From Deltaproteobacteria bacterium (GTDB lineage: Bacteria > Desulfobacterota > JAJRXV01), in assembly GCA_024275075.1 (NCBI GenBank), contig JAJRZU010000054.1:6546-70545 (forward strand): DNA of 64,000 bases, read 5' to 3'. The notes beneath the pieces were generated by a model. That model was not told the DNA's origin, did not search any database, and saw only the letters and a program-made list of their open reading frames with translations. Both the position numbers and the translations under genes were made by a program. This document shows, piece by piece, positions 115 to 57,355 of the stretch. Numbering within the stretch: the stretch's first letter is position 1; every line of letters begins with the position of its first letter.

Positions 115-205
115 AATGAATTACCCCGTAGCAAGCTGTTGGGATAGCAATTTTAAAATTACGCATCAAGCTGCGGGTAATAAAGCCCGCAGGAAAACCA
201 TGCGC
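115..205 (+). repeat. Intergenic hairpin-repeat element, copy A (AATGAAyTACyCCGyAGCA..GCTGCGGG family)
   Basis: Shares AATGAATTACCCCGTAGCAAGCTG plus a CTGCGGG..CCCGCAG hairpin with copies at about 9261, 47064 and 56617. Lies in the leuS 5' region, downstream of cheB. Confidence 0.5.
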
Positions 206-210
206 GTCTG

Positions 211-1302
211 TTAATTTTTTGATTCGCTACATATACTTATAATCGTATCAGAAATCTTGTCCAGCGGAACTATTTTATGTACCCTGCCGGTCTTGATCGC
301 CTCGTTCGGCATACCAAAGACAACAGAGGTCTCCTTGGATTCGGCAATGATTTTCCCACCGGTAAGGGACATGCTTACAACGCCGTCCCTGCCGTCGGCG
401 CCCATGCCGGTCAGTATGACGCCTAATGCTTTCGCTCTAAATATTTTCGCGATAGATTTGAACATATTATTGACCGAAGGGACATTCTTGTCATTATCGT
501 TCTCTTTTTCAAGTTTTGTGACGATGGTATCACCAGAGCGTTTAAATGCAAGGTGCTTTCCGCCCGGGGCTACCAGCACCTTCCCTTTCTCCAACGGTTC
601 GCCATCGCTCGCCTCTTTGATGAGGTACTCCGAGCTCTCGTTGAGCCTTTGAGAGAAAGACGCGGTGAACCCGGCGGGCATGTGTTGGGAAACAACGACA
701 GCGACATCAAGGTTGACCGGCAGTACGCTGAACAGGTTCTTCAGGGCGGATGGCCCGCCGGTGGAAGAACCGATCGCGACGACTTCGATTAGTTTTTTTG
801 AGTTGAAATTAAAGATATCAGAACAGACTTTATCAGAATCATCCATCTTCTTTTCAAAGATATCAGACTCTTTAAACTTCTGTATCCGGTTTTGCACGCT
901 GCTTAATTTAGTCAAGGACGCATTGATGACTTTGTCGATCAGGTCGCTTTTGATATTGTACAGTTTAGTTGAGATCGCCGCAGTCGGTTTAGGGATAAAG
1001 TCTACGGCTCCAAGGTCAAGCGCCTTAAAGACATTCACGTCGTCTTTTTTTGATGATACAACGACAATCGGTACCGGCATGGTCGCCATGGACATCCTGA
1101 TGAAAGAGAACCCGTCCATGACAGGCATCTCAAGATCAATAGTTATTACATCAGGTTTGAGCTTGCTAAGTTTCTTTATGCCATCTTCCCCGTCAACAGC
1201 GGTACCGACCACCTCTATGTCAGGGCTCGAAGTCAGCATATCTACTATTGTCCTTCTGTTAAACGCGGAATCATCTATTACTAATACTTTTATTCCACCC
1301 AA
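211..1302 (-). CDS. cheB: Chemotaxis response regulator protein-glutamate methylesterase CheB (REC + methylesterase)
   Basis: N-terminal receiver (VLVIDDSAFNRR..D..K) and C-terminal CheB esterase block (AIGSSTGGPSAL..VVVSQHMPAGFT). Confidence 0.9.
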   Translation of the reverse strand: MGGIKVLVIDDSAFNRRTIVDMLTSSPDIEVVGTAVDGEDGIKKLSKLKPDVITIDLEMPVMDGFSFIRMSMATMPVPIVVVSSKKDDVNVFKALDLGAVDFIPKPTAAISTKLYNIKSDLIDKVINASLTKLSSVQNRIQKFKESDIFEKKMDDSDKVCSDIFNFNSKKLIEVVAIGSSTGGPSALKNLFSVLPVNLDVAVVVSQHMPAGFTASFSQRLNESSEYLIKEASDGEPLEKGKVLVAPGGKHLAFKRSGDTIVTKLEKENDNDKNVPSVNNMFKSIAKIFRAKALGVILTGMGADGRDGVVSMSLTGGKIIAESKETSVVFGMPNEAIKTGRVHKIVPLDKISDTIISICSESKN

Positions 1303-2187: not shown

Positions 2188-4200
2188 TTAAGAAATAATG
2201 CCCAGAACTCTTTTCGCCATACGCTGAATCATCTCATCTTCCTCTTTTTCAATGAAAGGGGTCAGCTTTTGAACGATATTGTCATCCTTAATACCCTCAA
2301 ATGACTTGTAAATCAGAATTCTAATATCCGCTTTTGCGGAACTTAGCAGCTCTAAAATATTCTTTAAAATATTGTCATCCATGGACTCTTTCAATATACC
2401 CAGAGAGGCTTTGACGACCTCATAATCCTTGTGGCGCAACAGTTCTAACAAGTAGATTTTAAGCTCTGGCGCGTTAAGCTCTTTGAGCGACTCTATCGCG
2501 TTGATGACAAGTATCGGGTCATCGTGTTGCAAAAACTTCCTTAGCCGCCTGACGGCATCAGCGGCCTGCAACTTAGCAAGGCTTCTCATCGCGTTGATCT
2601 TCACCCATACATTCGGGTCATTAAGCGCCAGTATCAGGGAATTGAAGGATTCCTCGGAATATAAGAGCCCTAATGTTTTCGCGACGGCTATCCTGACTTT
2701 GTCGCTTTCGTCAGTGAGCGTCAGGACAAGGTGTTTGCTCTCAGCTAAGACGTTTATAGCGCCGATAGCATATACCGCAGCGGTTCTGACCTCTGGGTTG
2801 CTGTCTTTGAGCGCCATGTCAAGGTGTTTTATGTCCTCATCGATGCCGATCCTGCCGATAAGGGATATGACATTTATTTTAAGCTGTTCATCCTGAGCGC
2901 TTAAATGCGATTCTATCTCCCGCCTTATCTCCTTGGGATAAAGGTTCCCCAGGGCAGTAAGAGCATCTAACGCCGCCATCTGCACATCTTTATACTGGTC
3001 GTTCAGCACGGGGAAAATATGCTTGATCGCAGTACCCTTAGCTAATTGAGCCAGAGAGATTGCCGCGGAACTCCGAAGGTGCCAGAACCCGGATTTTAAT
3101 GATTCTACGAGTAGCGGCTCATACCGCTCATCCTTTAATGCCCCCATTACCTGTGCCAGGAAATCTTTTGTTGAGTCATCCGCCGTTAAAAACACTTCCT
3201 TGATCGTTTCAAAAGATTCCTTACCCATGAAGACGATGGAGTCAAATATGCACGCTTTTATGCTCTCGTCTCCTTGAACCTCAAGCAGCTTTGGTATAGT
3301 CTTAACAGCTTTCAGGTAGCCGAGCAGGGAGATGACCGCCTTTTGCACCTCTTCGTGTGCCGAGCTGAGCGAAGCCGGTATCCTGTCGAGAAGCTCCTTA
3401 GTCACGGCTTCGTTTAAGCGCTGTATAATCTTTTGTTTGCTGTTTTCATCGCTTATGCTGTTGTATATATTGACGACAGCTTTGATCGCGGCTTCCCTGC
3501 TGGCTTTAGATGTATCGCTGATGCCGTTGACAAGGTACTTGACAACCTCATCATCCTTGCTTTTGCCCATTACCTCAAACGCCGCCTTACGCAGTATCTT
3601 TGAGTCCAACAAAGGTATGAGCGCCCCTATGTCGATAGGTTCGCCAATGCTTTCAAGAGCCTCTAACGCACAGAACTGCAACTGTAGATCATCCCTTTTC
3701 AATGTACTTACAAGATGTTTGACGCTTGACGGATCCTTTATCTTTCCTAACGTCTCCGCCGCGGAAGACCGTACATTTTCGTCATCGTCGTCTAACAATT
3801 TCGCGACTACTTCTGATGAGTTGACATCCTTTATGTCACCTAACGCGTCAATCAGGAACTTCTTCACCTCAAAATTCGCGTTAAACAGATACTCAGTGAT
3901 GTGCGCTACGGCTTTTGCGCCCAATTTCGTGACTATTTCAACCGCCGCGTTCCTCTTGCCTGCATTGTCCCCTGCCTCTAACGCCGCGAACACCCGCTTG
4001 TAAAAACCTTTGAAATCAGAGTAGCGCAAGAGAGAATCGACAGCCGTTTTTCTTACCCGCCAGTACTGGTCACCGATAGCGTCGAACAAGAGAGTAAGCG
4101 CGTCCTCCGTTTGCAGGGCGGCGATCTTCTCGACACCGACCCGCCTGACCTCCGCATTCGGGTTTTTCAGCTGCTCTTTTATGTGATAGTTCTCTTCCAT
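2188..4200 (-). CDS. HEAT/PBS-lyase-repeat protein embedded in the chemotaxis operon
   Basis: Dozens of E(V/I)R..A(A/V)..LG repeats typical of HEAT/PBS-lyase repeats. ORF track starts at 4257, but the internal Met at 4200 (MEENYHIK) avoids a 47-nt overlap with the upstream cheW. Confidence 0.7.
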   Translation of the reverse strand: MEENYHIKEQLKNPNAEVRRVGVEKIAALQTEDALTLLFDAIGDQYWRVRKTAVDSLLRYSDFKGFYKRVFAALEAGDNAGKRNAAVEIVTKLGAKAVAHITEYLFNANFEVKKFLIDALGDIKDVNSSEVVAKLLDDDDENVRSSAAETLGKIKDPSSVKHLVSTLKRDDLQLQFCALEALESIGEPIDIGALIPLLDSKILRKAAFEVMGKSKDDEVVKYLVNGISDTSKASREAAIKAVVNIYNSISDENSKQKIIQRLNEAVTKELLDRIPASLSSAHEEVQKAVISLLGYLKAVKTIPKLLEVQGDESIKACIFDSIVFMGKESFETIKEVFLTADDSTKDFLAQVMGALKDERYEPLLVESLKSGFWHLRSSAAISLAQLAKGTAIKHIFPVLNDQYKDVQMAALDALTALGNLYPKEIRREIESHLSAQDEQLKINVISLIGRIGIDEDIKHLDMALKDSNPEVRTAAVYAIGAINVLAESKHLVLTLTDESDKVRIAVAKTLGLLYSEESFNSLILALNDPNVWVKINAMRSLAKLQAADAVRRLRKFLQHDDPILVINAIESLKELNAPELKIYLLELLRHKDYEVVKASLGILKESMDDNILKNILELLSSAKADIRILIYKSFEGIKDDNIVQKLTPFIEKEEDEMIQRMAKRVLGIIS

Positions 4201-9260: not shown

Positions 9261-9325
9261 AATGAACTACTCCGTAGCAAGTTGCGGGGGAATCAACCCC
9301 GCTGAAAAAAAACAGGCGAGCCTGT
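9261..9325 (+). repeat. Intergenic hairpin-repeat element, copy B
   Basis: aatgaactactccgtagcaagttGCGGGGGaatcaaCCCCGCtg aaaaaaaACAGGCgaGCCTGT, immediately followed by the RBS and GTG start of the 9341 gene. Confidence 0.5.
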
Positions 9326-9340
9326 AAAAAGGAGTCATAC

Positions 9341-10355: not shown

Positions 10356-10403
10356 CAGGGGCGCGACACAAGGTTCATGCGCCCGGGATACAGGAGGCAG
10401 GAG

Positions 10404-13400
10404 ATGATACCCATGAATAAAGAGAGAGCGAATAAATATATGCGCCTGGCGTGTAAGAAAAAGGGTTTTTCAATTGTCGAGCTCATAATAGCCCTTGCAA
10501 TCACGTCTATTGCGATAGTCGCTATCTATAATCTTTTTATTACTCAGCAAAAAGGTTTCGCGATACAAGAAGAAGTCGCGAATATGCAGCAAAATAACAG
10601 GGTTGCAATGGAAGAGCTCGCGCGGGTAGTAAAAATGGCGGGGGTCGGTGTTTTGCCTCCCCAGCAAAAGATATTATATTGCGGGCCTTACGACTTTGTA
10701 TTCAGCGGCAACGTAAACGGTACGGCCGGCGACGTAATGGCCATGAACGCCACTGTCGGTACATCGCTGTATACCGCGCCAGACCCCACGCCCTTCGTCA
10801 ACCAGGATTCAGAGACTTACCGCTGGACACTGGATAAAAACGGCGATGGCAGCGTAGATGCCGCCGATTATACAAACACTAATTCCGGTGCGACCCAGTA
10901 CTCTTTGTGGCGGGAAGTCTATACCGGTACAACCTCGATAATCGATGAGTTGGCCCCGGGAATAGCCGTGGCGGACACTCAGGGTAATCAGGTTGTCGTG
11001 TTCCAGTATTGGGGTAATTTTGACGCTGACCCTGCTCTGGATCTGTGGGGTGACGCGAACCAGGACGGCGAGCTTCAGACAGCGGAGATCCTCACAAATG
11101 GCTTATCCGGTGCGTTGGACCCGGTCACAGACCTTACCGGTAATGCCAGGGCTCTTGACGATATGTTGCAAAAAGTGGATCTTACAGTCATCACCGAGAC
11201 AGGAAAGAACGATCCAAACTACCCGACAAACTCAGGTTTCAGGCAAACAAGACACGCTTCTATGGTAACCCCGCGTAACCTGTGGACATGCGCCAATCTG
11301 GATATCGTACCGGGCTATAAATCGACCCTTAAAATCTCAACGGGCATCCCTGGCGGCCCACCGGCCGGAGACAACACGACAATACAGTTCATAGTGCTTG
11401 AATCTGGTATCCCTAAGAAGGATAAGGTTGTAACATTCAGCGCGACGATCGGTGGAGTGGACATCACCACATTAGGCGGCTCGTTATCCACCACCACAAC
11501 GACATCAGATGTCAACGGATTTGTAAGCCTTACAGTCAGCACACCTTCGTGTACTTATGTTCCGCCTGGAACTTTCCCTATAGGCGGTACAGTAGTCGTC
11601 ACCGCTGTGCTGCCCTCAGAGATTACACCGTTTGGCCCATGCTCCGCGGATTCTGAAAACGTTAACCTGACGATGGTTGTCGGTGACCAGAGTATTCTTA
11701 ATGTAACAAATACACCGAGCTCATCAGTCGTGTTCAGCTGTGGAGACACTACCATCGCCACATTGTTTGACCTACAGGTAGAGGACGCGTGTGGTAACCC
11801 TGTAACACCGAACGCACCGATCAACCTGACAGCTTTCGGCGTTAGCGGCGGTGCATGTTTCGCAGGGTTTGGGACTCTTACACCAAATGTCATACCGATT
11901 ACGACAAGCAGTGTCACGGTATCTTACACATCCGAGGCGAGCGGCCCTTATGCCGCTGACAGGACAGCGGGTAACATAGAGCAGTTCATTGTGAATATAG
12001 ATCATGACTTTTATGGCGCGCCAAACTGCTTAGCGCCTTTGACGTCTCTTTATGTAGAAACGTTCCCTGATCATATAACCAATTTTGACCCGCTTACCAA
12101 TCCGATTACCGCTACAAACCATACGGATTGCAACATGGCCGGGTTCAAGTCTACTGACGCTATATTCAATGTAGAGGATTCATGCGGCAACGCGGTCTAT
12201 GATATGACCCAGTTTACCCAGACAGTTGGCGCTAACGTTGAGGTCACATTTACGCCAGACCCGGCGGGGATCTTAAATACTCCATCAGACCAGGGGACTA
12301 TATCGCCCGCGTTACCCGCGAATATACAAACATCGGTCGCCGGTGATTACTATCTCACATATCTTGAGCCGTCATGTACTCTGCCGCCGCTTTATACAAG
12401 GATAATTCAACCGACTATCACTCTTACCCCAAACAATTTTACAAACCAGGGGCCTGTTAATTTCGGGCTGAACCTGCAAAGCTGCCTTGACTGTGAGATC
12501 GTCACAAGCACGCCGGTAATGAGCAATTGCATCTCTGACACTACCGCAAGCGTTATCGATGTCCCAGGAGTTACCGTTGTGTTCTGCGGGATAGCAGACG
12601 GAACGCCGGTAGAGCTTGAGCTGTCATCATCGGCGGGGCCGGCTCTGAATGCGAGTTTTGACCAAAGCAACCCTTCAGTTTCAACGATTATGGGGACTTT
12701 TACATTAAATTCCTTCTCAGCTTCCATTTATGGCGGTAACGCACCAAGTGGAGCGACTATATCGATAACCGCGTACTCACCGGACAAGGCGACTTACGCC
12801 ACCGATCCGGCGGGCTTTACATGTTCAGGTATCGATATAATAACGATTGAATCGTATTGTACATATATCGGTGTATTTAATGAGATAATCCAGTTAGGCT
12901 ATACGGAGATAACCGATATCTCAGCGAATGACAAACTTTACATACAAGTAGAGGACTGTGACGAGAACAAGGACTCTACCGTAGTGGAAACGCTGACGGT
13001 TACGGTGACCAGCCCGCAGGGTTATTCACCGCCGGCCCCGGACATAGAGATCGCTATCCTTACCGAGACAGGTCCTGATACCGGTATATTCAACAGTAAT
13101 ACATACGTACCGCCTACCAGCAATACGCCAGGACCGTTGCCGGTTATTTACTGCGGTTTAGGGCCTGGCGGCGATACGGCTTATAATGGCAGGTTGTTCC
13201 TGAGACCCGGCTATGATGTGACAGTGGAGTATGTTGATCCTGATGACCCGACAGACACCGGATGCGTAAAAACATTAGGCGTAAACACGTTCAGCTGTCC
13301 GGCATTCGTTTACTCATACTATGGAAGCTCATACATTCACCTTGACAGACACGGTATAACCGCGAACCTGTCATTAGGCGGCAATATCTTTACAAATGGC

Positions 13401-16400
13401 GAATTTGAATTGTCAGGCGATATGTCTGTCGATAACAGAGGCCCTGATGGCGTAATCCATACCCCTGATGATTTCCAGACCGTTTCTCTTGGTCACATGT
13501 CATTAGCCGGTAACGTTATCGGTGACTGTTACGCGCCTTCTGTAGACCTGTACGGCCCTGACGGAGCCGGTCAGAACACGCAGGTATTCCCACCAAATGA
13601 AGGTGTTGTCCTGGGTGATTTATACCTCATGGACGGGTTCTATTATGATGATGTCGTAAGTACATATTACCCTGAAATAATAGGTTCGAGGGGGAACCCG
13701 CCAAGCTATGGCAATTATACGTCATTAGCCGCTTCTAATATCGCGCAGCCGCCCCCGGGCAGCAGCGTGCAGGTACATGCCGTTACAGGCGGCATGTTAC
13801 ATACCGGCGCCGTATTCGCGACCCCGAACGAACCGGGCTATCCGTATGACCCGAATGTCGATCCAAACTATGCTCTGCCGGTACCAGATGGAGAGGTGCT
13901 TGTCGCGAGTGATTTGCCAACGTTTGATTTCTCCCAGTCTGTCGCCTGGTCACAGGACTTGACTACAAAGTATCATATGTTTGTCGGTGAGGACACATAC
14001 TTCAACAGTATGGCGGAATTCGAGACATTCCTGACAACAGCGAGACCGACGTATACCGCGATAGACGGAACGTCTTACACTACGCCGCATATAAATCCGC
14101 AGGGGAAAACTATCTACATAATCGGTGACCCGTACGAAGGTACTGTATTCCACTTCCCGAATGGTTTCGACACCACGCAGTTAAGCGCGCCGTACCAGTT
14201 TATTGTTCTTGGTATGATAGTATCTGAGACAAGGTTGAGCATTAAAGGTAATCATGATGGTATAGCAGTCTACGGATGCGGCAAACGCCCGATTGACTGG
14301 ATAGACGGCTGGACAGGGGTGACTTACTCTAATTATGATGACTGGGTAGCTGTACGCGGCGGCGAAGAAAATATCCCTTATGATATGATCGCGTTAGTCG
14401 CCAGAACAAAATTAGAGGTAAAAGACGGAACCGCCCATACACTGTTAAAAGGTATCGTCTATAGTGAAAACGAGAGCCATTTCCACAATAAAACCCCACA
14501 GGGCAAGGCGTTCTTGCACGGCGCGGAGATCGCCAACGTTATACACAACTGCCTGTACATGGACTTTCGGTACAATGACTGCGTAAGGCGGGCAGCCGCC
14601 TACTGGTACGGATGTTATTGCGACTCCGGCGGCGCGGCAATCGCCTGTTCGCTTGCAATAACGCCTTCTTCGGCTACTGTTACAAGGGGCGGGAACACTG
14701 TCACTCTGACAGGGTTAAATTCATTGAGCGGTATATATAACTTTACGGTGACCGGTACGAGTGGTGGAACTGTCTCTGTTGTCGGTGACACCGCCACATA
14801 CACTTCAGGGCCGAATGTTGGCACTGATATTGTTTCTGTCTCGTCGTCCGGGTGTATCGGGGCGTCAGCCACAATAAATGTCATCGATTATTGCAATGTT
14901 GTCGTCAATCCGGCCACTCTCACTATTCCGCTTGGACAGGATTGGATACTGTCGGCTTCATCGCTCCAGGGCGGTCCGTTTAACTGGTCGATAGTACAGA
15001 ACCAAAGCGGTAGCTCCCTTGATATGAACGTTGGTGACGCCGTAACATATACGGCTGGCGCTACCGGTGGTATAGATATCATCAAGGTCACTGATTCCGG
15101 CGGCTGTGCCGAAGCGTTCATTACAATAACCGTTGACCCGTGTTACGTGCTCGTTGAGCTCTATGAGTTTGACGGCATTAACTGTACATCGATCCAGACT
15201 AACACTGTAACCGTCAACGGGGAGGTCTGCGTATCCGCGGTGCTGGGTGACCCGACCGCTCCAGGATTCATCTGGTATTCTGATGATCCTGCCGGTCTCT
15301 TCTTCGATGCAGTATCAGGCCTGTGGGTAGGTTCCGGCACATTAAGCACGCTCTTAGGGCAGGCGGTCAGATACCAGGCTGGCGGTGTCTTGGGCACCTA
15401 CACCATATCTGCGATGGATGATGAGAGCTGTACGGGTACTCAACTGTTAAGCACATGTGATATTACGCTGCTTGATTCGTTCGGCGCCATCAACACGACT
15501 ATTTATGAAACGCAAACCGTCGATTATGTGGGTTACGTCGGTATCGCGGTACCGGCGCGTACTATCGATACATGGGATACCACCGACCCGGCAGGCCCGG
15601 CGGCGCTTACAGTGACCAGCCCGACTACCGGTACATATACACCATCGATGCCGGGTAACTTTGAAGTGACTATATATGATAATGTCGGGTGTTCGTCAAC
15701 CGCTTTCGTCACGGTTCTGCCATGCGCGACGATAACGATAAATCCGACGGACGCGACTGTCAGCTTAGTTGCGGGCAATACGGAATTGTATACAGCTGTC
15801 GGTGGTACGCCGCCATATACATGGTCTACCTCTGACACCAATATCGGGGTAATCGATCCGGTAACCGGCGTGTTTACACCGATTGCCGCATGGCCGGTTC
15901 CAATAAACGTCTACGTGGTGGACAGCGCCGGCTGTACCGGTCAGACTACGGTACTGGTGCAGTGCCCTGCAATAAGTGTAGAGCCGGCAAACGCTACAAT
16001 TGTCTATGCAGATCCTTTGACACCGGTATCATACAGCGCAAGCTTCGGGTCAGCGCCTTATTCATGGTCGATTGACGACCCCACAGTCGGGTCTATTGAT
16101 TCATTAAGCGGGATGATGACAATAACCGGTGAAGGAACCGCGACTATTACCGCTGTTGACGCATACGGATGTATAGGCACGACGACGGTTACCGTGGCGT
16201 GTCCCACGCTTACCATATCGCCGGATAACGCGACATTTAACATCGGTGATACCGCCAATTACTCCGTAGCCGGGGGAAGCGCGCCATATAGCTGGTGGAT
16301 AGACAACCCCGCGGTCGGTACGATAGCCCCGGTGACCGGCGTGTTCAATGCGCTCGCCGGCGGTACGACAACGATAAATGTCAGCGACAAGTACGGGTGC

Positions 16401-17435
16401 GTGGATACTACCGCGGTTAGTGTCGCCTGCCCGGTCGTCACGATCGCTCCGGTCACACCGTCATACCTCGTCGGCGCAACCGACACGTTCTCGGCAGCCG
16501 GTGGTATGGCGCCATACACATGGACGAGCTCGGCTCCATTAGTTGCTACGATCGACTCTTTGACCGGCGCGCTCACCGCCGTCGGTGAGGGCAGTGCGAT
16601 AATCACCGGTACTGATACAAACGGATGCTTCGCAGATACTACGATTACGGCGACATGTCCGACGCTCACTATCACGTCGGCCAGCTCGACTTATACAACA
16701 GGCGACACCGATACCTTCACGGTAACTGGCGGAACGGCGCCATACACATGGGTGAGCTCAGACACGACGGTTGGAACGATAGACGCGACTGGCGCGTTTG
16801 CCGCCGTTGGCACGGGTAGCACAGTGATAACTGTCACCGGCAAGTATGGTTGTACGACAAATAAGGCGGTTACTGTCGTTTGTCCAACAATAACCATAGC
16901 GCCGAACAACCCGACGTACACCGAAGGCGATACAGACACGTTCGCCGCGGCGGGTGGTGCAACGCCGTATACATGGTCAAGTTCAGATTCGCTGCTTGGT
17001 ACGGTTGACTCGCTGACAGGCGCATTCTCGGCTATCGCCGCCGGCAACATAACTATAACGGTTACAGATACTTACGGTTGTGTCGCCACGACACCGGTCA
17101 CCATCAACTCGGCATGTTCTGAGACTATTACAGTCACCAAGTTCAAGATCGATTGTAATAAAGAGAAGGTGGAAGTTACTGCTGACTCCACCAAGCTTAA
17201 TACATCGCTGGATTTACAGTTTGTTGTGTACGATGGCGCCGGTGTCGCGCAGTGGGGACCTCAGGTTATATCATGGGATGCCGGTAAGGGCGAGTATCGA
17301 TACAAACAAGAAGGGTTAGGTAACTTTATGGATGCCTGGGATGACAATTACTACGTAATAGTGTCTGACTTAATTGAATGCCCGGGGACTGACAGCGCTC
17401 CATACACGATAGAGCAGAGGAAGAACTGTCCATAA
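10404..17435 (+). CDS. Giant (2344 aa) PilW-like minor pilin fused to a Ca-loop and Ig-like-repeat adhesin region
   Basis: AGGAGG RBS then ATG at 10404. N-terminus KKGFSIVELIIALAITSIAIVAIYNLF..QQNNRVAMEELARVVKMAG is PilW-like. Two DxNxDGxxD Ca-loop motifs follow. About 10 Cys-bracketed roughly 78-aa Ig-like (BIG_2-like) repeats span 14646..17112, with a Cys-rich C-terminal domain. Rho-independent terminator follows. Confidence 0.7.
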   Translation: MIPMNKERANKYMRLACKKKGFSIVELIIALAITSIAIVAIYNLFITQQKGFAIQEEVANMQQNNRVAMEELARVVKMAGVGVLPPQQKILYCGPYDFVFSGNVNGTAGDVMAMNATVGTSLYTAPDPTPFVNQDSETYRWTLDKNGDGSVDAADYTNTNSGATQYSLWREVYTGTTSIIDELAPGIAVADTQGNQVVVFQYWGNFDADPALDLWGDANQDGELQTAEILTNGLSGALDPVTDLTGNARALDDMLQKVDLTVITETGKNDPNYPTNSGFRQTRHASMVTPRNLWTCANLDIVPGYKSTLKISTGIPGGPPAGDNTTIQFIVLESGIPKKDKVVTFSATIGGVDITTLGGSLSTTTTTSDVNGFVSLTVSTPSCTYVPPGTFPIGGTVVVTAVLPSEITPFGPCSADSENVNLTMVVGDQSILNVTNTPSSSVVFSCGDTTIATLFDLQVEDACGNPVTPNAPINLTAFGVSGGACFAGFGTLTPNVIPITTSSVTVSYTSEASGPYAADRTAGNIEQFIVNIDHDFYGAPNCLAPLTSLYVETFPDHITNFDPLTNPITATNHTDCNMAGFKSTDAIFNVEDSCGNAVYDMTQFTQTVGANVEVTFTPDPAGILNTPSDQGTISPALPANIQTSVAGDYYLTYLEPSCTLPPLYTRIIQPTITLTPNNFTNQGPVNFGLNLQSCLDCEIVTSTPVMSNCISDTTASVIDVPGVTVVFCGIADGTPVELELSSSAGPALNASFDQSNPSVSTIMGTFTLNSFSASIYGGNAPSGATISITAYSPDKATYATDPAGFTCSGIDIITIESYCTYIGVFNEIIQLGYTEITDISANDKLYIQVEDCDENKDSTVVETLTVTVTSPQGYSPPAPDIEIAILTETGPDTGIFNSNTYVPPTSNTPGPLPVIYCGLGPGGDTAYNGRLFLRPGYDVTVEYVDPDDPTDTGCVKTLGVNTFSCPAFVYSYYGSSYIHLDRHGITANLSLGGNIFTNGEFELSGDMSVDNRGPDGVIHTPDDFQTVSLGHMSLAGNVIGDCYAPSVDLYGPDGAGQNTQVFPPNEGVVLGDLYLMDGFYYDDVVSTYYPEIIGSRGNPPSYGNYTSLAASNIAQPPPGSSVQVHAVTGGMLHTGAVFATPNEPGYPYDPNVDPNYALPVPDGEVLVASDLPTFDFSQSVAWSQDLTTKYHMFVGEDTYFNSMAEFETFLTTARPTYTAIDGTSYTTPHINPQGKTIYIIGDPYEGTVFHFPNGFDTTQLSAPYQFIVLGMIVSETRLSIKGNHDGIAVYGCGKRPIDWIDGWTGVTYSNYDDWVAVRGGEENIPYDMIALVARTKLEVKDGTAHTLLKGIVYSENESHFHNKTPQGKAFLHGAEIANVIHNCLYMDFRYNDCVRRAAAYWYGCYCDSGGAAIACSLAITPSSATVTRGGNTVTLTGLNSLSGIYNFTVTGTSGGTVSVVGDTATYTSGPNVGTDIVSVSSSGCIGASATINVIDYCNVVVNPATLTIPLGQDWILSASSLQGGPFNWSIVQNQSGSSLDMNVGDAVTYTAGATGGIDIIKVTDSGGCAEAFITITVDPCYVLVELYEFDGINCTSIQTNTVTVNGEVCVSAVLGDPTAPGFIWYSDDPAGLFFDAVSGLWVGSGTLSTLLGQAVRYQAGGVLGTYTISAMDDESCTGTQLLSTCDITLLDSFGAINTTIYETQTVDYVGYVGIAVPARTIDTWDTTDPAGPAALTVTSPTTGTYTPSMPGNFEVTIYDNVGCSSTAFVTVLPCATITINPTDATVSLVAGNTELYTAVGGTPPYTWSTSDTNIGVIDPVTGVFTPIAAWPVPINVYVVDSAGCTGQTTVLVQCPAISVEPANATIVYADPLTPVSYSASFGSAPYSWSIDDPTVGSIDSLSGMMTITGEGTATITAVDAYGCIGTTTVTVACPTLTISPDNATFNIGDTANYSVAGGSAPYSWWIDNPAVGTIAPVTGVFNALAGGTTTINVSDKYGCVDTTAVSVACPVVTIAPVTPSYLVGATDTFSAAGGMAPYTWTSSAPLVATIDSLTGALTAVGEGSAIITGTDTNGCFADTTITATCPTLTITSASSTYTTGDTDTFTVTGGTAPYTWVSSDTTVGTIDATGAFAAVGTGSTVITVTGKYGCTTNKAVTVVCPTITIAPNNPTYTEGDTDTFAAAGGATPYTWSSSDSLLGTVDSLTGAFSAIAAGNITITVTDTYGCVATTPVTINSACSETITVTKFKIDCNKEKVEVTADSTKLNTSLDLQFVVYDGAGVAQWGPQVISWDAGKGEYRYKQEGLGNFMDAWDDNYYVIVSDLIECPGTDSAPYTIEQRKNCP
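15723..17112 (+). repeat. Six near-identical tandem 231-nt (77-aa) Ig-like coding repeats inside the giant pilin gene
   Basis: Each repeat reads CP(T/A)(L/I)TI(S/A)P..(G/A)GxAPYxW..GT(I/V)D..TG.(F/L)..A.G..TI(T/N)V(T/S)D.YGC...(V/I)TV, repeated six times in frame. Confidence 0.7.
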
Positions 17436-24325: not shown

Positions 24326-24642
24326 CTATACCTTACTATTTAAGCTGTAATTAAAAAGATTCCACAAGTTAGTATACTTTAGCGCCGGTGTCAAGAAAAA
24401 AGGCGTTTTACGCACATTTTTGTGGGGAATTATCGTGCAAAATATCCGTTTATTTATGAGAAAATACTTTAAATCACGTTGGGTTTAATGTATAATTTTA
24501 AATGAGATGCTATGAACCACTAAGAACACAGAGGATTTCTCAGAGTTCTCGGAGAAAAGCTTTTTAAACAAAAATCTCTGTGTCCTTAGTGTCTACTCTG
24601 CGTCTTGTGTGGTAAAAATAATTTCATTAAAGAGGAGATGCT

Positions 24643-29511: not shown

Positions 29512-29916
29512 TTATCGTTTTTCGCGGGGATGGAAAAATCCTTTGATACAGTTATGCTTGCGCACGCAGATCTGGATGTGGTTTTTCTCTTTAAAACCGG
29601 CATTTTCATATAGATCTTTACCTTCCCAGAAGACACCACGCACAGAGTCAAACGGCGCTTTCCCCTCATCCCTGTAAAATTTATGAGTAGTTTCAATAAC
29701 AGCACAGTCCAGTCTACGCTTTAGCAGGGCTCTCTCTTGCCCTAATGGTTTATTCTCTGGTAAAATAAGTCCACGTTCTTTATATAGCATTGCAAGACGG
29801 TCATAATCATTTTCACTTGGTTCTAAGTACTTATTATTAGAATTGATAATATTATCAACAACTTCCTTGTCGCAACCGTGGAAACCAAGAACAAAAGATG
29901 GAAGGGCTTTATACAT
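29512..29916 (-). CDS. Hypothetical 134-aa protein with LGFHGC motif, in a low-GC islet
   Basis: ORF in AT-rich DNA, overlapping the upstream small gene by 8 nt. FHGC plus later Y/E residues faintly suggest an H-Y-E ADP-ribosyltransferase-like fold (speculative). Confidence 0.45.
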   Translation of the reverse strand: MYKALPSFVLGFHGCDKEVVDNIINSNNKYLEPSENDYDRLAMLYKERGLILPENKPLGQERALLKRRLDCAVIETTHKFYRDEGKAPFDSVRGVFWEGKDLYENAGFKEKNHIQICVRKHNCIKGFFHPREKR

Positions 29917-30160
29917 TCTTATTAGCTTGCCTGTAAGGTTTTCTCACATTACCCTTAGGGGTACAGATACCTATATCAATCAACTGCTTTAAGGCGAGTT
30001 TCTTAGCTTCTTCTTTGGGTAATTTAGCAAACTGTTCAGCAAGTTGCTTGTTAGACTCTCTTATTTCTCTGGCTACTTGTTTGGCTACTTGTTTTGCTAC
30101 TTGTTTGGCTACTTGTTTGGCTACTTGTTTTGCTTCTTGTTTTGCTTCTTGAGTGGTCAT
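29909..30160 (-). CDS. Small (83 aa) protein with (KQVA)n tetrapeptide tandem repeat
   Basis: EAKQEAKQVAKQVAKQVAKQVAKQVAREI is encoded by 6-7 tandem 12-nt units. Translationally coupled to the 134-aa ORF. Confidence 0.45.
   Translation of the reverse strand: MTTQEAKQEAKQVAKQVAKQVAKQVAKQVAREIRESNKQLAEQFAKLPKEEAKKLALKQLIDIGICTPKGNVRKPYRQANKNV
30071..30148. repeat. Tandem 12-bp repeat (GGCTACTTGTTT)n within the small ORF
   Basis: About 6.5 perfect or near-perfect 12-nt units. In-frame, so a candidate for length variation. Confidence 0.8.
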
Positions 30161-46513: not shown

Positions 46514-47014
46514 TTACTTCTTCTTTTTCGGTGAGGCGGTTTTCTTAATTTCCGCGGCCCGCTTGTCAGAATGGCATACCTTACAGAACTTACCCATTTT
46601 TCTACCACCTTTTGTGGCGGCTATCAAATACTTGTAATTCGGGTTGGCTGGATGAGGGTCATGGCAGCTTCTACAAACCAAAGTACCATCCTTAGCCAAT
46701 CGGCCATCAGGGACTTTAACATTTTTAGGTTTCATGCCGACCGGGTGAGTCTTTTTAAGGTCGATAGGTATAATCCCTTCATCGTCATTGTGGCAACCTA
46801 AGCATAATGTAGAATTACCGGTAATATTCTTCCCCGTAGCAGGGTTCTTTAGGTTCGTCAATGGTTTGACCCCAATGATCTTATCCCCCTGCGCCTCATG
46901 GATACTGTGACACTCCGTACACTCATTATCATGAGGGCCAAACGCCAAAGCACCAGAAACGCTAAAAAGAACGGTAATTAAAACAAACAAGGATAGATGT
47001 AAATATCTTTTCAC
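46514..47014 (-). CDS. Tetraheme c-type cytochrome (periplasmic, signal peptide)
   Basis: Four CxxCH motifs (CTECH, CLGCH, CRSCH, CKVCH). GTG start after AAAGGAGGTGA. Confidence 0.8.
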   Translation of the reverse strand: MKRYLHLSLFVLITVLFSVSGALAFGPHDNECTECHSIHEAQGDKIIGVKPLTNLKNPATGKNITGNSTLCLGCHNDDEGIIPIDLKKTHPVGMKPKNVKVPDGRLAKDGTLVCRSCHDPHPANPNYKYLIAATKGGRKMGKFCKVCHSDKRAAEIKKTASPKKKK

Positions 47015-47063
47015 GTGGTTTCACCTCCTTTAATTAAATTTTTAATAAAATAACACTAACCTC

Positions 47064-47132
47064 AACAGGCGTGCCTGCCTTTATGCGCGCCTGTTTTATC
47101 TGTGGGCTTGTTTCCCCGCAGCTTGCTGCGAG
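47064..47132 (-). repeat. Intergenic hairpin-repeat element, copy D (minus orientation, 5' leader of the tetraheme cytochrome gene)
   Basis: The reverse complement tcGCAGCaaGCTGCgGGGaaacaagCCC..aaaACAGGCGcgcataaaggcaggcaCGCCTGTtg closely matches copy B (ccGTAGCaaGTTGCgGGGGaatcaaCCCC..aaaACAGGCgaGCCTGT). Confidence 0.5.
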
Positions 47133-47195
47133 ATTTTTTACCAGATGCCTCGTCAGCGTACCACGAGGAATTTCAATCAATGAAAAGCCACGTAA

Positions 47196-47579
47196 TTATT
47201 GCTCCTCAATAACATCCTTCTGATATACCTTCTCTAATTTCTCTTCATCCTCTTTGCAATCTATACAAAGCGTAGTAACAGGCCTCACTTTAAGTCTTTG
47301 AACGCTGATCTCCTCCTCACAGCGCTCACACATCCCAAATGACCCGTCCTCAAACTTATCTAACGCTTTCTCGACCTTCCTAAGCAAGTTCCTGTCCCTG
47401 TCCATGATCCTTATCGCGATTTTCTGGGATGCTTCCGTACATGCCTTATCGCTTTCATCGGGCATCTCAGAGCTCTCTAAGGATTCATCATCTATCGAGG
47501 ATGTCTTATCACCCATCACAATACTCTGCCTCATGTCTAAAAGTATCTGCTTAAGCTTTTTTAATTCGGACTTTCTCAA
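47196..47579 (-). CDS. dksA: DksA/TraR-family C4 zinc-finger protein
   Basis: C-terminal CERCEEEI..x17..CIDCK four-Cys finger preceded by a coiled-coil region. Confidence 0.7.
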   Translation of the reverse strand: MRKSELKKLKQILLDMRQSIVMGDKTSSIDDESLESSEMPDESDKACTEASQKIAIRIMDRDRNLLRKVEKALDKFEDGSFGMCERCEEEISVQRLKVRPVTTLCIDCKEDEEKLEKVYQKDVIEEQ

Positions 47580-55230: not shown

Positions 55231-56103
55231 CTATATCAGCTTGTTTAACGGATACTCGACGATCCCTTCAGCGCCCGCTTCTATCAACTGTGGTATTAAT
55301 TCCCGCACGACATGCTCTGCAATGATCGTCTCGACGCTTAACCAGTCACTGTTATATAAATGTGAGATAGTAGGCGCTTTGATGCTTGGTAAGAGCGCCA
55401 CAATCTCTTCGATCTTATCCTTGGATACGTTCATCTTCAAACCAACCATGCCGCCCGCTTTCAAGGCAGCGTTCAAGAGTGTGGATATCTGCTTTATCTT
55501 CCGCTTCTTCCATGGATCCTTCATGGCTTCTTTGTTCGCGATAAGCTGGGTGTTTGACTGCATCATCTCATGGATTATCTTAAGGCCGTGCGCCTTGATC
55601 GTGCTGCCGGTCTCGGTCACCTCAACGACGGCGTCTACAAGACCCTCGACGACCTTCGCTTCCGTAGCGCCCCACGAGAACTCGACACCTACATCGATAC
55701 TCCTTGAGGCGAAGAACTCCTTCGTATAATTCATCATCTCCGTGGCGATACGCTTCCCGTTCAGATCCTCTATCTTTTGTATAGGTGAGTTTTCGGGTAC
55801 GACAACCACCCATCTTGTCGGGCGCGAGCTCACTTTGGAGTAGACCAAGTCACAGATGACCTCGACATCGGATTTGTTCTCCATGGTCCAGTCCTTACCG
55901 GTGAGGCCAAGGTCAAAAGTACCGGTCTCGACATACTTTGACATCTCCTGGGCACGGGCAAGCGCGCATGTTATCTCCACATCATCTATGTAAGGGAAAT
56001 AGTTGCGCGAACTCTTCTTTATCTTCCAACCGGATCTCTTGAATAGTTCGATCGTCGCGTTCTCAAGACTGCCCTTTGGTATACCTAATTTTATCTTACT
56101 CAC
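55231..56103 (-). CDS. hisG: ATP phosphoribosyltransferase (long form with C-terminal regulatory domain)
   Basis: Start reassigned to GTG at 56103 (RBS GAAGGAGGT), giving [13 protein letters not shown]. HisG catalytic and regulatory domains present. Overlaps hisI by 8 nt. Confidence 0.8.
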
Positions 56104-56485
56104 CGTAAACCTCCTTCGGGTCGAAAACGAGCTCCCCGACCTCCCTGACATTATCATTATCGATCACCTGCTTATAAAAACAGCTCCTGTGGCCGGTATG
56201 GCACGCAGCGCCGCCTACCTGCTCCACTTTTAACAATATTGTGTCATTGTCGCAGTCAAAATAGATATCCTTCACCTCCTGGAAATTACCCGACGTCTCA
56301 CCCTTTACCCAGAACTTCTGACGCGACCGGCTGTAAAAACACGCCTTCTTTAACTCCAGTGTCTCCTTCAAAGCGCCCTCGTTCATATAAGCCATCATAA
56401 GCACCTCATTTGTCTTGTGATCCTGCACGATTACAGGCACCAAACCGCCGCCCTTCGCAAAATCGACCTGCTCTAAAAAACTCAT
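56096..56485 (-). CDS. hisI: Phosphoribosyl-AMP cyclohydrolase
   Basis: [46 protein letters not shown] are canonical HisI motifs. Confidence 0.85.
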
Positions 56486-56616: not shown

Positions 56617-56675
56617 AATGAACTACCCCGCAGCAGAGCTGCGAGGTATTAAACCCTATAAACAGGCAAGCCTGA
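56617..56675 (+). repeat. Intergenic hairpin-repeat element, copy C
   Basis: aatgaactaCCCCGCAGCagaGCTGCGaGG..aaACAGGCaaGCCTGa in the hisI-ubiX divergent intergenic region. Confidence 0.5.
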
Positions 56676-56723
56676 ATAAATATCCGCTTTCAACTGAACC
56701 ACAACCGCATGGAAGGCGCCTTC

Positions 56724-56752
56724 TTGACGAAACCTGTAATACGTGCTAAATT
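56724..56752 (+). promoter_or_regulatory. Sigma-70-type promoter (TTGACG-17-TAAATT) immediately upstream of ubiX
   Basis: -10 ends about 7 nt before the ubiX ATG, which would make the transcript leaderless or very short-leadered. Confidence 0.35.
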
Positions 56753-56758
56753 CACTTT

Positions 56759-57355
56759 ATGAACAGTAACGATTCAATTACAGTGGCGGTAACCGGTGCG
56801 AGCGGCTCGGTTTACGCAGACAGACTTATCTGTGTCCTTTCCGAGATGGGCTTCTGGATCGACCTCATCGTCTCAGATTCAGGGCGGAAGGTGATCGCTC
56901 ACGAGCTTGGTATCACCGATGTGGAAGAACACTTTGCCGGTAGCGCAAACATCACCTGCCATGATAACCGCGATATCGCCGCGTCGATAGCGAGCGGGAC
57001 GAGTACGGCGAAGAGGATGGTGGTGATACCCGCGTCCATGGGCACCACCGCCCGGATAGCCGCGGGCATTTCGTCATGCCTGGTCGAGCGCGCGGCGGAC
57101 GTTGTGATAAAAGAGCGCGGGAACCTTGTACTCGTACCCAGGGAGTCGCCGATGAGCCCGATACATCTGCAAAACCTTTTGACCCTGTCCAGGATCGGTG
57201 TCACGATAGTACCGGCGGCGCCGGGTTTCTACCACAAACCCCGCTCGATAGACGACCTCGTTGATTTCATCGTCACCAAAACGCTTGACGTGCTTGGCAT
57301 CAAGTCTGACCTTATAAAAAGGTGGCCTGCAAGCGTAACGCTTGACCAAATATAG
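56759..57355 (+). CDS. ubiX: UbiX-family flavin prenyltransferase
   Basis: ITVAVTGASGSVYA..flavoprotein fold and the conserved PASMGT..IAAG block. Confidence 0.85.
   Translation: MNSNDSITVAVTGASGSVYADRLICVLSEMGFWIDLIVSDSGRKVIAHELGITDVEEHFAGSANITCHDNRDIAASIASGTSTAKRMVVIPASMGTTARIAAGISSCLVERAADVVIKERGNLVLVPRESPMSPIHLQNLLTLSRIGVTIVPAAPGFYHKPRSIDDLVDFIVTKTLDVLGIKSDLIKRWPASVTLDQI

Follow-up and report, generated by a model that had tools for sequence, protein, structure and literature searches.

Insertion sequences of the IS200/IS605 family always insert their left end 3' to a tetra- or pentanucleotide target, and in IS608 and ISDra2 the left cut lies 3' of such a target, which is retained at the donor site (PMC5027513). 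Gene-less derivatives that keep only the ends of these elements, the PATEs of Haloquadratum and Geobacillus stearothermophilus, are presumed to be mobilised in trans (PMC10055086). REP sequences are evolutionarily related to IS200/IS605 ends, according to PMC3333891. Four short repeats in a 64-kb stretch of DNA (the window) were compared with these systems, and their ends indicate that they are very probably non-autonomous miniature (MITE/PATE-like) derivatives of an IS200-type member of the IS200/IS605 family. Elements of this kind are well known. For the lineage, the one-hairpin miniatures, and the third hairpin found locally and described below, the searchable literature gave no record: exact 14-16-mers of hairpin and leader retrieved no described element, and the only two matches were unrelated papers.

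The first-pass annotation of the window had claimed four hairpin repeats, here named A to D, and all of them were read directly at the coordinates claimed for them (Table 1). They are 59-97 nt long and carry no gene. The core pattern YCGYAGCARRYTGCGRGG, with at most two mismatches, had three matches in the window versus 0.11 expected, and a 26-nt extended core had three versus 0.00 expected; the core of copy D differs from YCGYAGCARRYTGCGRGG by a 1-nt loop insertion (GCAGAGC). The leader AATGAAYTAC, which had been noted in three copies, was exact in A, B, and D, with the hairpin directly adjoining each time. The palindrome of a third hairpin, ACAGGCNNGCCTGT, had three matches versus 0.10 expected, all within B, C, and D; the claim that a downstream GCCTGT hairpin is common to all copies stands for these three, while copy A has a decayed version (ACCATGCGCGTCTGT). 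In single-strand folding, B (z = -2.5), C (z = -2.7/-3.9), and D (z = -3.8/-5.0) were more stable than their shuffles, and copy A was no better than shuffles (z about -0.4 to -0.6). From the match counts against chance, the leader, the third hairpin, and the folds of B, C, and D, the repeat family is real, and the four repeats lie far beyond chance.

Table 1. Copies of the repeat in the window, their parts, and flanking genes with coordinates.
Feature	Position	Strand	Sequence or remark
leuS, flanking copy A	start about 108	-
Copy A	115..211	+	two-hairpin form, decayed
Copy A, end-1 leader	115-124	+	AATGAATTAC
Copy A, hairpin 1	125-143	+	GCTGTTGGG, 3' arm broken
Copy A, hairpin 2	161-177	+	ACGCATCAAGCTGCGGG
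Copy A, tail	178-193	+	TAATAAAGCCCGCAGG
Copy A, AAAAC and degenerate third hairpin	194-211	+
cheB, flanking copy A	211-1302	-	stop at 211
Copy B	9261..9325	+	one-hairpin form
Copy B, leader	9261-9270	+
Copy B, core hairpin	9271-9290	+	TCCGTAGCAAGTTGCGGGG
Copy B, overlapping alternative hairpin	9284-9302	+	GCGGGGG/CCCCGC
Copy B, canonical element end	about 9305
Copy B, third hairpin	9312-9325	+	ACAGGCGAGCCTGT; then T8 on the minus strand
Cytochrome gene, flanking copy C	46514-47014	-	small multihaem cytochrome
Copy C	47065..47137	-	hairpin 2 and tail
Copy C, core hairpin	47132-47114	-	CTCGCAGCAAGCTGCGGGG
Copy C, tail	to about 47099	-	AAACAAGCCCACAGA
Copy C, third hairpin, enlarged loop	47094-47065	-	ACAGGCG...CGCCTGT
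Candidate diverged hairpin 1 of copy C	47141..47170	-	CCTCGTGGTACGCTGACGAGG, then CATC
dksA, flanking copy C	47196-47579	-
hisI, flanking copy D	56096-56485	-
Copy D	56617..56675	+	one-hairpin form, best preserved
Copy D, leader	56617-56626	+
Copy D, hairpin	56627-56646	+	CCCGCAGCAGAGCTGCGAGG
Copy D, tail	56647-56658	+	TATTAAACCCTA
Copy D, TAAAC	56659-56663	+
Copy D, third hairpin	56664-56675	+	AGGCAAGCCTGA
ubiX, flanking copy D	56759-57355	+

The genes around the copies were assigned by Pfam searches of the flanking ORFs. Copy A lies between cheB and leuS, and its end 1 adjoins the Shine-Dalgarno sequence of leuS (GGAGGG). Copy B lies between genes for PilX-like and GspH/FimT-like pilins, both on the plus strand, 12 nt past the pilX-like stop and 15 nt ahead of the GTG start of the fimT/gspH-like gene. 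Copy C separates dksA from the gene for a small multihaem cytochrome, and copy D occupies the divergent spacer between hisI and ubiX, 84 nt upstream of the ubiX ATG. In the first-pass annotation, the contexts of C and D had been exchanged.

The GTDB species-representative genomes were scanned with ATGAAYTACYCCGYAGCA-N3-4-TGCG, for which about one chance match was expected, and the motif was found in at least 117 contigs. Judging from record titles, the matches listed represent about 18 phylum-level groups, including Desulfobacterota, Nitrospirota, Bacteroidota, Lachnospiraceae, CPR phyla, Binatia, Acidobacteriota, Omnitrophota, Gammaproteobacteria, an archaeon, and others, and many of them sit at contig ends. 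Alignment of the matches listed identified the motif as one end (end 1) of bounded gene-less elements of 45-380 nt. End 1 consists of (A)ATGAACTAC, the hairpin CCCCGCAGCA(G)AGCTGCGRGG, and TATC; its leader has the consensus AATGAACTAC in gene-less and tnpA-bearing elements. Between the two ends lies a variable interior, from nothing to about 250 nt. A second, related hairpin makes up end 2 together with GGAATTCTTTTGA or GGGGAATTAGACCCGTAGAGA beside TTAAA/TTGAA; its consensus is hairpin plus GGAATT(CTTTT/AGACCCGTAGAG)A adjoining TTAAA. Most of the 66 elements listed have ATTAAA/ATTGAA next to end 2. In minimal one-hairpin forms of 45-53 nt (L021, L033, L042, L069, L084, and L087), the end-1 leader is joined straight to the end-2 tail. 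Within single genomes, identical copies sit at unlike sites (L024/L065/L079; L021/L042), and those of L037 and L064 are one base apart.

The first-pass annotation had proposed a covariance model as a check for compensatory changes, and such changes keep the pairing of hairpin 2 across the other genomes: the pairs were AU16/CG14/GC2 at one position and AU26/UA8 at the next, and the covariation score was 0.296 versus 0.144 for shuffles and at most 0.072 for slid registers. This covariation is expected for a structure that TnpA reads on single-stranded DNA and alone is no argument for RNA.

In L020, L043, L089, L099, and L036/L083, about 550-650 bp lie between the two ends and hold one ORF, which reads from end 2 towards end 1. 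Its product matched the Pfam family Y1_Tnp (E from 1e-33 to 1e-37) and the NCBIfam equivalog transpos_IS200 with 132 bits (cutoff 55), while the NCBIfam model REP_Tyr_transpos gave 23 bits, below its cutoff of 80. Relatives annotated as 'tnpA: IS200/IS605 family transposase' and bounded by recognisably related ends were present on plasmids of cultured Piscirickettsia salmonis and of cyanobacteria. No related element was found in the phage collection.

A filled and an empty site could be compared in Piscirickettsia salmonis, where the element interrupts an IS30 transposase gene (filled, L126; empty, L129). The inserted segment of L126 is ATGATAC...CAGAGA, with one base ambiguous; nothing is duplicated, and the flanking ATTGA is retained in L129. 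Thus, in transposase orientation, the element sits 3' of TCAAT. The equivalent target elsewhere is TTTAAT, TTCAAT, or TTAAAT. From the left end it is about 15-20 nt to the first hairpin, and 9 nt separate the second from the right end (...GGGG-TAGTTCATT). Such an arrangement follows the IS200/IS605 rule cited above (PMC5027513).

Among described systems, the full-length elements resemble the tnpA-only IS200 group, for example Salmonella IS200, in their size (about 0.55-0.65 kb), their single Y1/HUH TnpA gene, their subterminal hairpins, the lack of terminal inverted repeats and of target duplication, and the fixed short target at the left end. The window copies differ from this group in being gene-less and 59-97 nt long, and this lineage has end sequences of its own. 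The layout also agrees with that of IS608 and ISDra2, in which one hairpin is about 9-10 nt away from the cut at the right end and another about 15-20 nt away from the cut at the left end, 3' of the retained target (PMC5027513). However, IS608 and ISDra2 also carry tnpB, whereas this lineage has tnpA only, and its target is YAAT-like (TTTAAT, TTCAAT, ATCAAT) instead of TTAC or TTGAT. PATEs bear the left- and right-end hairpins of a resident IS200/IS605 element (PMC10055086), and this pattern fits exactly copy A and the 87-380-nt elements of other genomes. Many PATEs have omega-RNA scaffolds for TnpB, which the present elements lack; in addition, the one-hairpin forms of 45-65 nt (B, D, L021, L033, L069, and L084) are smaller than typical PATEs, and the local copies add a third hairpin.

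The assignment of the window copies used models built from other genomes only. An end-1 HMM recovered D (E = 5.1e-12), B (4.1e-8), A (6.3e-7), and the hairpin of C (8e-4), and in D all 33 of the 33 aligned bases equal the consensus of other phyla. A covariance model of 32 end-2 sequences, run unfiltered over the whole window, ranked C best (1.8e-6), followed by D (6.6e-6), B (0.0034), and A (0.53), with nothing else convincing in the window; copy A was thus recovered weakly at its right end. The window ends correspond to those of an autonomous Y1/HUH TnpA element with its subterminal hairpins, and the copies have no coding capacity of their own. No tnpA was found in the 64-kb window, where tblastn with TnpA gave nothing better than E = 0.98. 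The canonical target-side motif ATTAAA/ATTGAA is missing from the window copies, which are flanked by (T/A)AAAC and then the shared hairpin.

The copies differ in their state. Copy A aligns over its full length with the two-hairpin form of other genomes, including ATTACG before hairpin 2, and this alignment ruled out a one-hairpin copy with an insert. In copy B, the 3' arm of the core hairpin is predicted to pair with the downstream CCCCGC instead. A is clearly decayed, with broken stems, B is diverged, and D is close to the consensus; A and B are probably immobile fossils, and D may still be mobilisable. Copy C lacks the AATGAAYTAC leader. A candidate diverged hairpin 1 of copy C folds with the stem CCTCGT/ACGAGG in the centroid structure and resembles by eye end 1 of the Piscirickettsia element (CTCCTCGCAGCAAGCTACGAGGTATC); the end-1 HMM was not significant on it (E = 23), and the same stretch is missing from relatives. 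Copy C would be a two-hairpin element if this hairpin is real, which is uncertain.

The spacers were also compared with those of relatives. The nearest available relatives were uncultured, and their syntenic contigs, found via homologues of the flanking proteins, have 61-75% protein identity, which allows no clean excision-site comparison. The only named close matches among these homologues were 'Thermodesulfobacteriota bacterium'. The gene order arginase-dksA-cytochrome-nrfH-like is conserved in the relatives, and all of them have a TTGACT...TATAAAT promoter-like motif in the dksA-cytochrome spacer (79, 62, and 181 nt; L122, L123, L124, and L125), from which the element and the third hairpin are absent. 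The similarity of the window spacer to these stops after ...TTGAAAT, and about 106 nt intervene, including copy C and its third hairpin. The element and the third hairpin are likewise absent from the pilX-fimT spacers of two relatives (71 and 67 nt); the lengths here misfit a simple insertion, as the spacer has 92 nt with the 65-nt element versus 67-71 nt without it. Four further contigs of relatives (53.5 kb) contained no copy, and the ubiX neighbourhood, the site of copy D, is not conserved in relatives. The alignments therefore point to presence in the window and absence at orthologous sites, as seen against relatives of 61-75% protein identity. The insertions show remodelling of both the dksA-cytochrome and the pilX-fimT spacer in this lineage, and transcription of the cytochrome gene may have changed as a result.

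Each of the four window copies extends past the canonical end (...CAGAGA) into (T/A)AAAC-AGGCnnGCCTGT; in A this segment has degenerated, and in C its loop is enlarged. The four share a ACAGGCnnGCCTGT hairpin that, read on the transposase-sense strand, leads into a T-run and is terminator-like. In B and C, this form is confined to the antisense strand of the host genes, and in A, where the third hairpin lies in sense orientation after cheB, the stem is decayed; these copies do not fit an intrinsic (Rho-independent) terminator, with its GC-rich hairpin and U-run on the sense strand behind a gene. The AAAAC-AGGCnnGCCTGT segment was absent from all 117 loci among the matches listed. A search of JGI metagenomes for the local sub-family (hairpin ... 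AAACAGGCNNGCCTG) gave zero matches, its source lineage being evidently absent there. An independent repeat targeted by the MITE was considered as the origin of the third hairpin and was not supported, as no solo third hairpins occurred in the window or in the 117 loci listed. We lean towards a local addition, in which the ACAGGCnnGCCTGT hairpin and T-run travel with the left end in this lineage. The most economical reading of these sequences would be a lineage sub-family whose left end has been extended by a terminator-like hairpin; sequential insertion beside another repeat would be a less economical alternative. A terminator hairpin has reportedly been seen at the left end of Salmonella IS200, and the outer-left terminator-like hairpin of the window copies resembles it.

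The same hairpin could have a larger role. In the sub-family, a single TnpA-type hairpin, the terminator-like hairpin, and the T-run might constitute a mobile module of 60-65 nt, acting as a portable insulator against antisense transcription and as a promoter-displacing element, as at the cytochrome gene; we consider this unlikely. Under such a reading, the module, owing to its built-in unidirectional terminator, would survive only antisense inside operons, and it would be among the smallest mobile units derived from IS200/IS605 elements, one hairpin serving as left and right end. One-hairpin forms are not known to be mobilised by TnpA.

Because the copies are intergenic and near start codons, as in the short distance from B to fimT and the contact of A with the leuS Shine-Dalgarno sequence, they could be a shared cis-regulatory 5' leader or a small-RNA family acting on pilin, cytochrome, leuS, or ubiX expression, two options that the first-pass annotation had raised. 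The stable folds of B, C, and D would suit such a role, as would the covariation of hairpin 2, by which RNA and single-stranded DNA are not separable. However, the description of the copies as lying mostly in 5' leaders holds by position only: A is inverted relative to its downstream gene compared with B and C, and D stands in a divergent spacer. The downstream genes have no functional relation, the orthologous cytochrome and fimT leaders of relatives are without the structure, and a transposase gene is framed by this very sequence, which recurs in unrelated contexts of many phyla. At gathering score, Rfam identified one tRNA only in the window; no family was found on the window copies at gathering score or E <= 5, or on the canonical copies L020, L024, L037, L043, L013, and L021 (E <= 1). 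Neither the small-RNA option nor the leader option is supported, given the lack of Rfam matches, the inconsistent orientation, the empty dksA-cytochrome and pilX-fimT spacers of relatives, and the unrelated contexts across phyla; together we regard them as highly improbable. The further suggestion of a REP/MITE-like element named the correct kind of thing, here a non-autonomous IS200-type derivative. REP/REPIN elements kept by a domesticated RAYT (TnpA-REP) would likewise be short GC-rich intergenic palindromes in multiple copies, related to IS200/IS605 ends and able to affect mRNA stability or termination, and GTAG occurs in the stems of copies A and B. The transposase between the ends is nevertheless the IS200 equivalog described above and no RAYT, and its gene lies inside the element between both ends, as in an insertion sequence. 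Both hairpins of a long form point the same way, each with its G-rich arm 3', so that there are no inverted doublets, and the sequence is common to many phyla, unlike species-specific REPs. Since the associated transposase is of IS200 type, the repeats are not taken as a REP/RAYT system, the chance of which we consider remote.

An origin as MITEs followed by exaptation would be compatible with the preferred IS200-type assignment. The repeats might now serve as antisense terminators or insulators, as stabilisers of upstream mRNA, or as suppliers or displacers of promoters, for example at the cytochrome gene. The third hairpin is present in all four local copies and absent from the wider family, is terminator-like in B and C only antisense to the host operon, and is decayed in A, the sole sense-oriented copy; moreover, the insertion of C splits the TTGACT-N-TATAAAT promoter-like motif that is conserved in relatives. 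Against this, orientation statistics are meaningless with only four copies, the decayed state of A and B suggests that the core is not under purifying selection, and the purging of polar insertions explains the surviving orientations equally well. We therefore judge exaptation unlikely. A further reading was a small protein (MNYP...) translated from the ATG within AATGAAYTAC, as ORFs of 21, 43, and 32 codons begin at that ATG in B, D, and A, respectively. The 1-nt loop difference (GCAAGC versus GCAGAGC) shifts the frame, and the peptides diverge after residue 6 or so; there is no Shine-Dalgarno sequence before the ATG in A, B, and D, the ATG is missing from C, and other genomes vary freely in what follows the hairpin. 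As the frame is not conserved, this reading was rejected, and we give it practically no weight.

For the IS200-type derivatives, the following course of events is proposed. The autonomous parent is about 550-650 bp long, with a Y1/HUH TnpA as its only gene and two subterminal hairpins that are nearly alike in sequence. In transposase orientation, its right end is hairpin-TAGTTCATT, the reverse complement of AATGAAYTAC plus hairpin, and its left end is (target YAAT)/TCTCT..AATTCC-hairpin. The short forms keep the ends only, either as two-hairpin forms (A and perhaps C) or as minimal one-hairpin forms of 45-65 nt (B and D). With IS608 and ISDra2 as models, TnpA acting in trans would bind the hairpins on single-stranded DNA, such as the lagging-strand template, with the cut sites set by base pairing with bases beside the hairpin foot. 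A single-stranded circle would then be excised and re-inserted 3' of a short AT-rich target without duplication; for this lineage, we infer such single-stranded 'peel and paste' from its membership of the family. The window copies would represent lineage-specific insertions into intergenic spacers, and any effects on neighbouring genes would be incidental and not the cause of the repeats' existence. Candidates are RNA hairpins within the transcripts of pilX-fimT and dksA-cytochrome, an ancestral cytochrome promoter pushed out of place, and an antisense-facing terminator-like hairpin.

For annotation, hairpins of this type are better recorded as IS200-family MITE remnants than as riboswitch-like leaders or small RNAs, and the 'MNYP...' mini-ORFs that start in the repeats warrant no gene calls. 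The end consensus AATGAACTAC-hairpin ... hairpin-GGAATT..AGAGA beside TTAAA picks out one IS200 lineage, miniatures included, across many phyla. It is useful for repeat masking and, because many matches lie at contig ends, for explaining contig breaks in MAGs.

The 33-nt end of the element is nearly invariant and is common to one IS200 lineage and its miniatures (loci L001-L117, on at least 117 contigs). Among the matches listed, the carriers fall into about 18 phylum-level groups, including gut Lachnospiraceae, Bacteroidota, CPR bacteria, and one archaeal MAG. Many of the listed matches lie at contig ends, a frequent position that suggests that assemblies are broken by the element. The phylum breadth of the lineage could be inflated by contamination of MAGs; however, there are cultured bacteria that also carry the element, namely Endozoicomonas (exact pattern match) and Piscirickettsia and Kovacikia (relatives found by blastn).

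In many of the two-hairpin miniatures at these loci, the variable interior was made up of other recurrent palindromic repeats, for example, TGTCATTCCGnnnnnCGGAATCCAG...GGAATGACA, TCACCCCCGAATGTTTTTATCGGGGGTCCAG, and CCCTCACCCTGCCCTCTCCCGCG..GGGGAGAGGG, which suggests that nested or passenger repeats ride between IS200-type ends. The ATG within the AATGAAYTAC leader opens spurious reading frames in three of the window copies (MNYPVASC..., MNYSVASC..., and MNYPAAEL...), and 'MNYP' mini-proteins of this kind will probably be called as genes by annotation software wherever the element is present. The covariance model of the second end, built from other genomes, gave a weak match (E=0.15) at 24469-24494 (-) of the window, covering only the tail, with no hairpin (ATTAAACCCAACGTGATTTAA); the match could be an isolated leftover of a further copy, or it could be due to chance.

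At the site of copy C, the spacer between dksA and a small multihaem cytochrome gene was compared with the element-free spacers of three relatives (L122, L123, and L125), which share a sigma-70-like TTGACT-N15-17-TATAAAT motif directly 5' of the cytochrome gene. The corresponding -35 in the window reads GTGGCT, and the similarity to the relatives stops past TTGAAAT; as this is where the repeat-containing block starts, the -10 is displaced in the window. A promoter scan of window positions 46900-47300 found no sigma-70-like site, and the cytochrome gene may now rely on read-through from dksA.

Features of the repeat in the window and at other loci
Feature	Location	Strand	Remark
ORF from ATG in AATGAAYTAC	window 116-214	+	spurious
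ORF from ATG in AATGAAYTAC	window 9262-9327	+	spurious
ORF from ATG in AATGAAYTAC	window 56618-56749	+	spurious
Interior repeats	L002, L016, L031, L035, L045, L070, L080, L092, L100, L113		
Interior repeats	L004, L012, L091, L094, L109		
Interior repeats	L005, L010, L067		
Cytochrome promoter region	window 47141-47206	-	vs L122:2063-2161, L125:1992-2073, L123:2246-2446

Other repeats were observed in the window. A 12-nt unit, GGCTACTTGTTT, forms a tandem array at 30050-30156, within or overlapping minus-strand ORFs (29909-30160), and would encode a KQVA-type tetrapeptide repeat if read on that strand. Three copies at 16473-17009, spaced by 225-228 nt and sharing approximately 70% identity across the 84-nt stretch that was compared, are tandem domains of a giant protein (2352-aa ORF, 10377-17435, +) encoded downstream of the minor pilin genes. 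The orthologue of this protein on contig L131 has Big_2/Ig-like matches. The Bacteroidota contig L037, which also carries the element, contains an unrelated Rfam DUF805b RNA motif at 3483-3515 (+), scoring 39 bits, above the gathering score.
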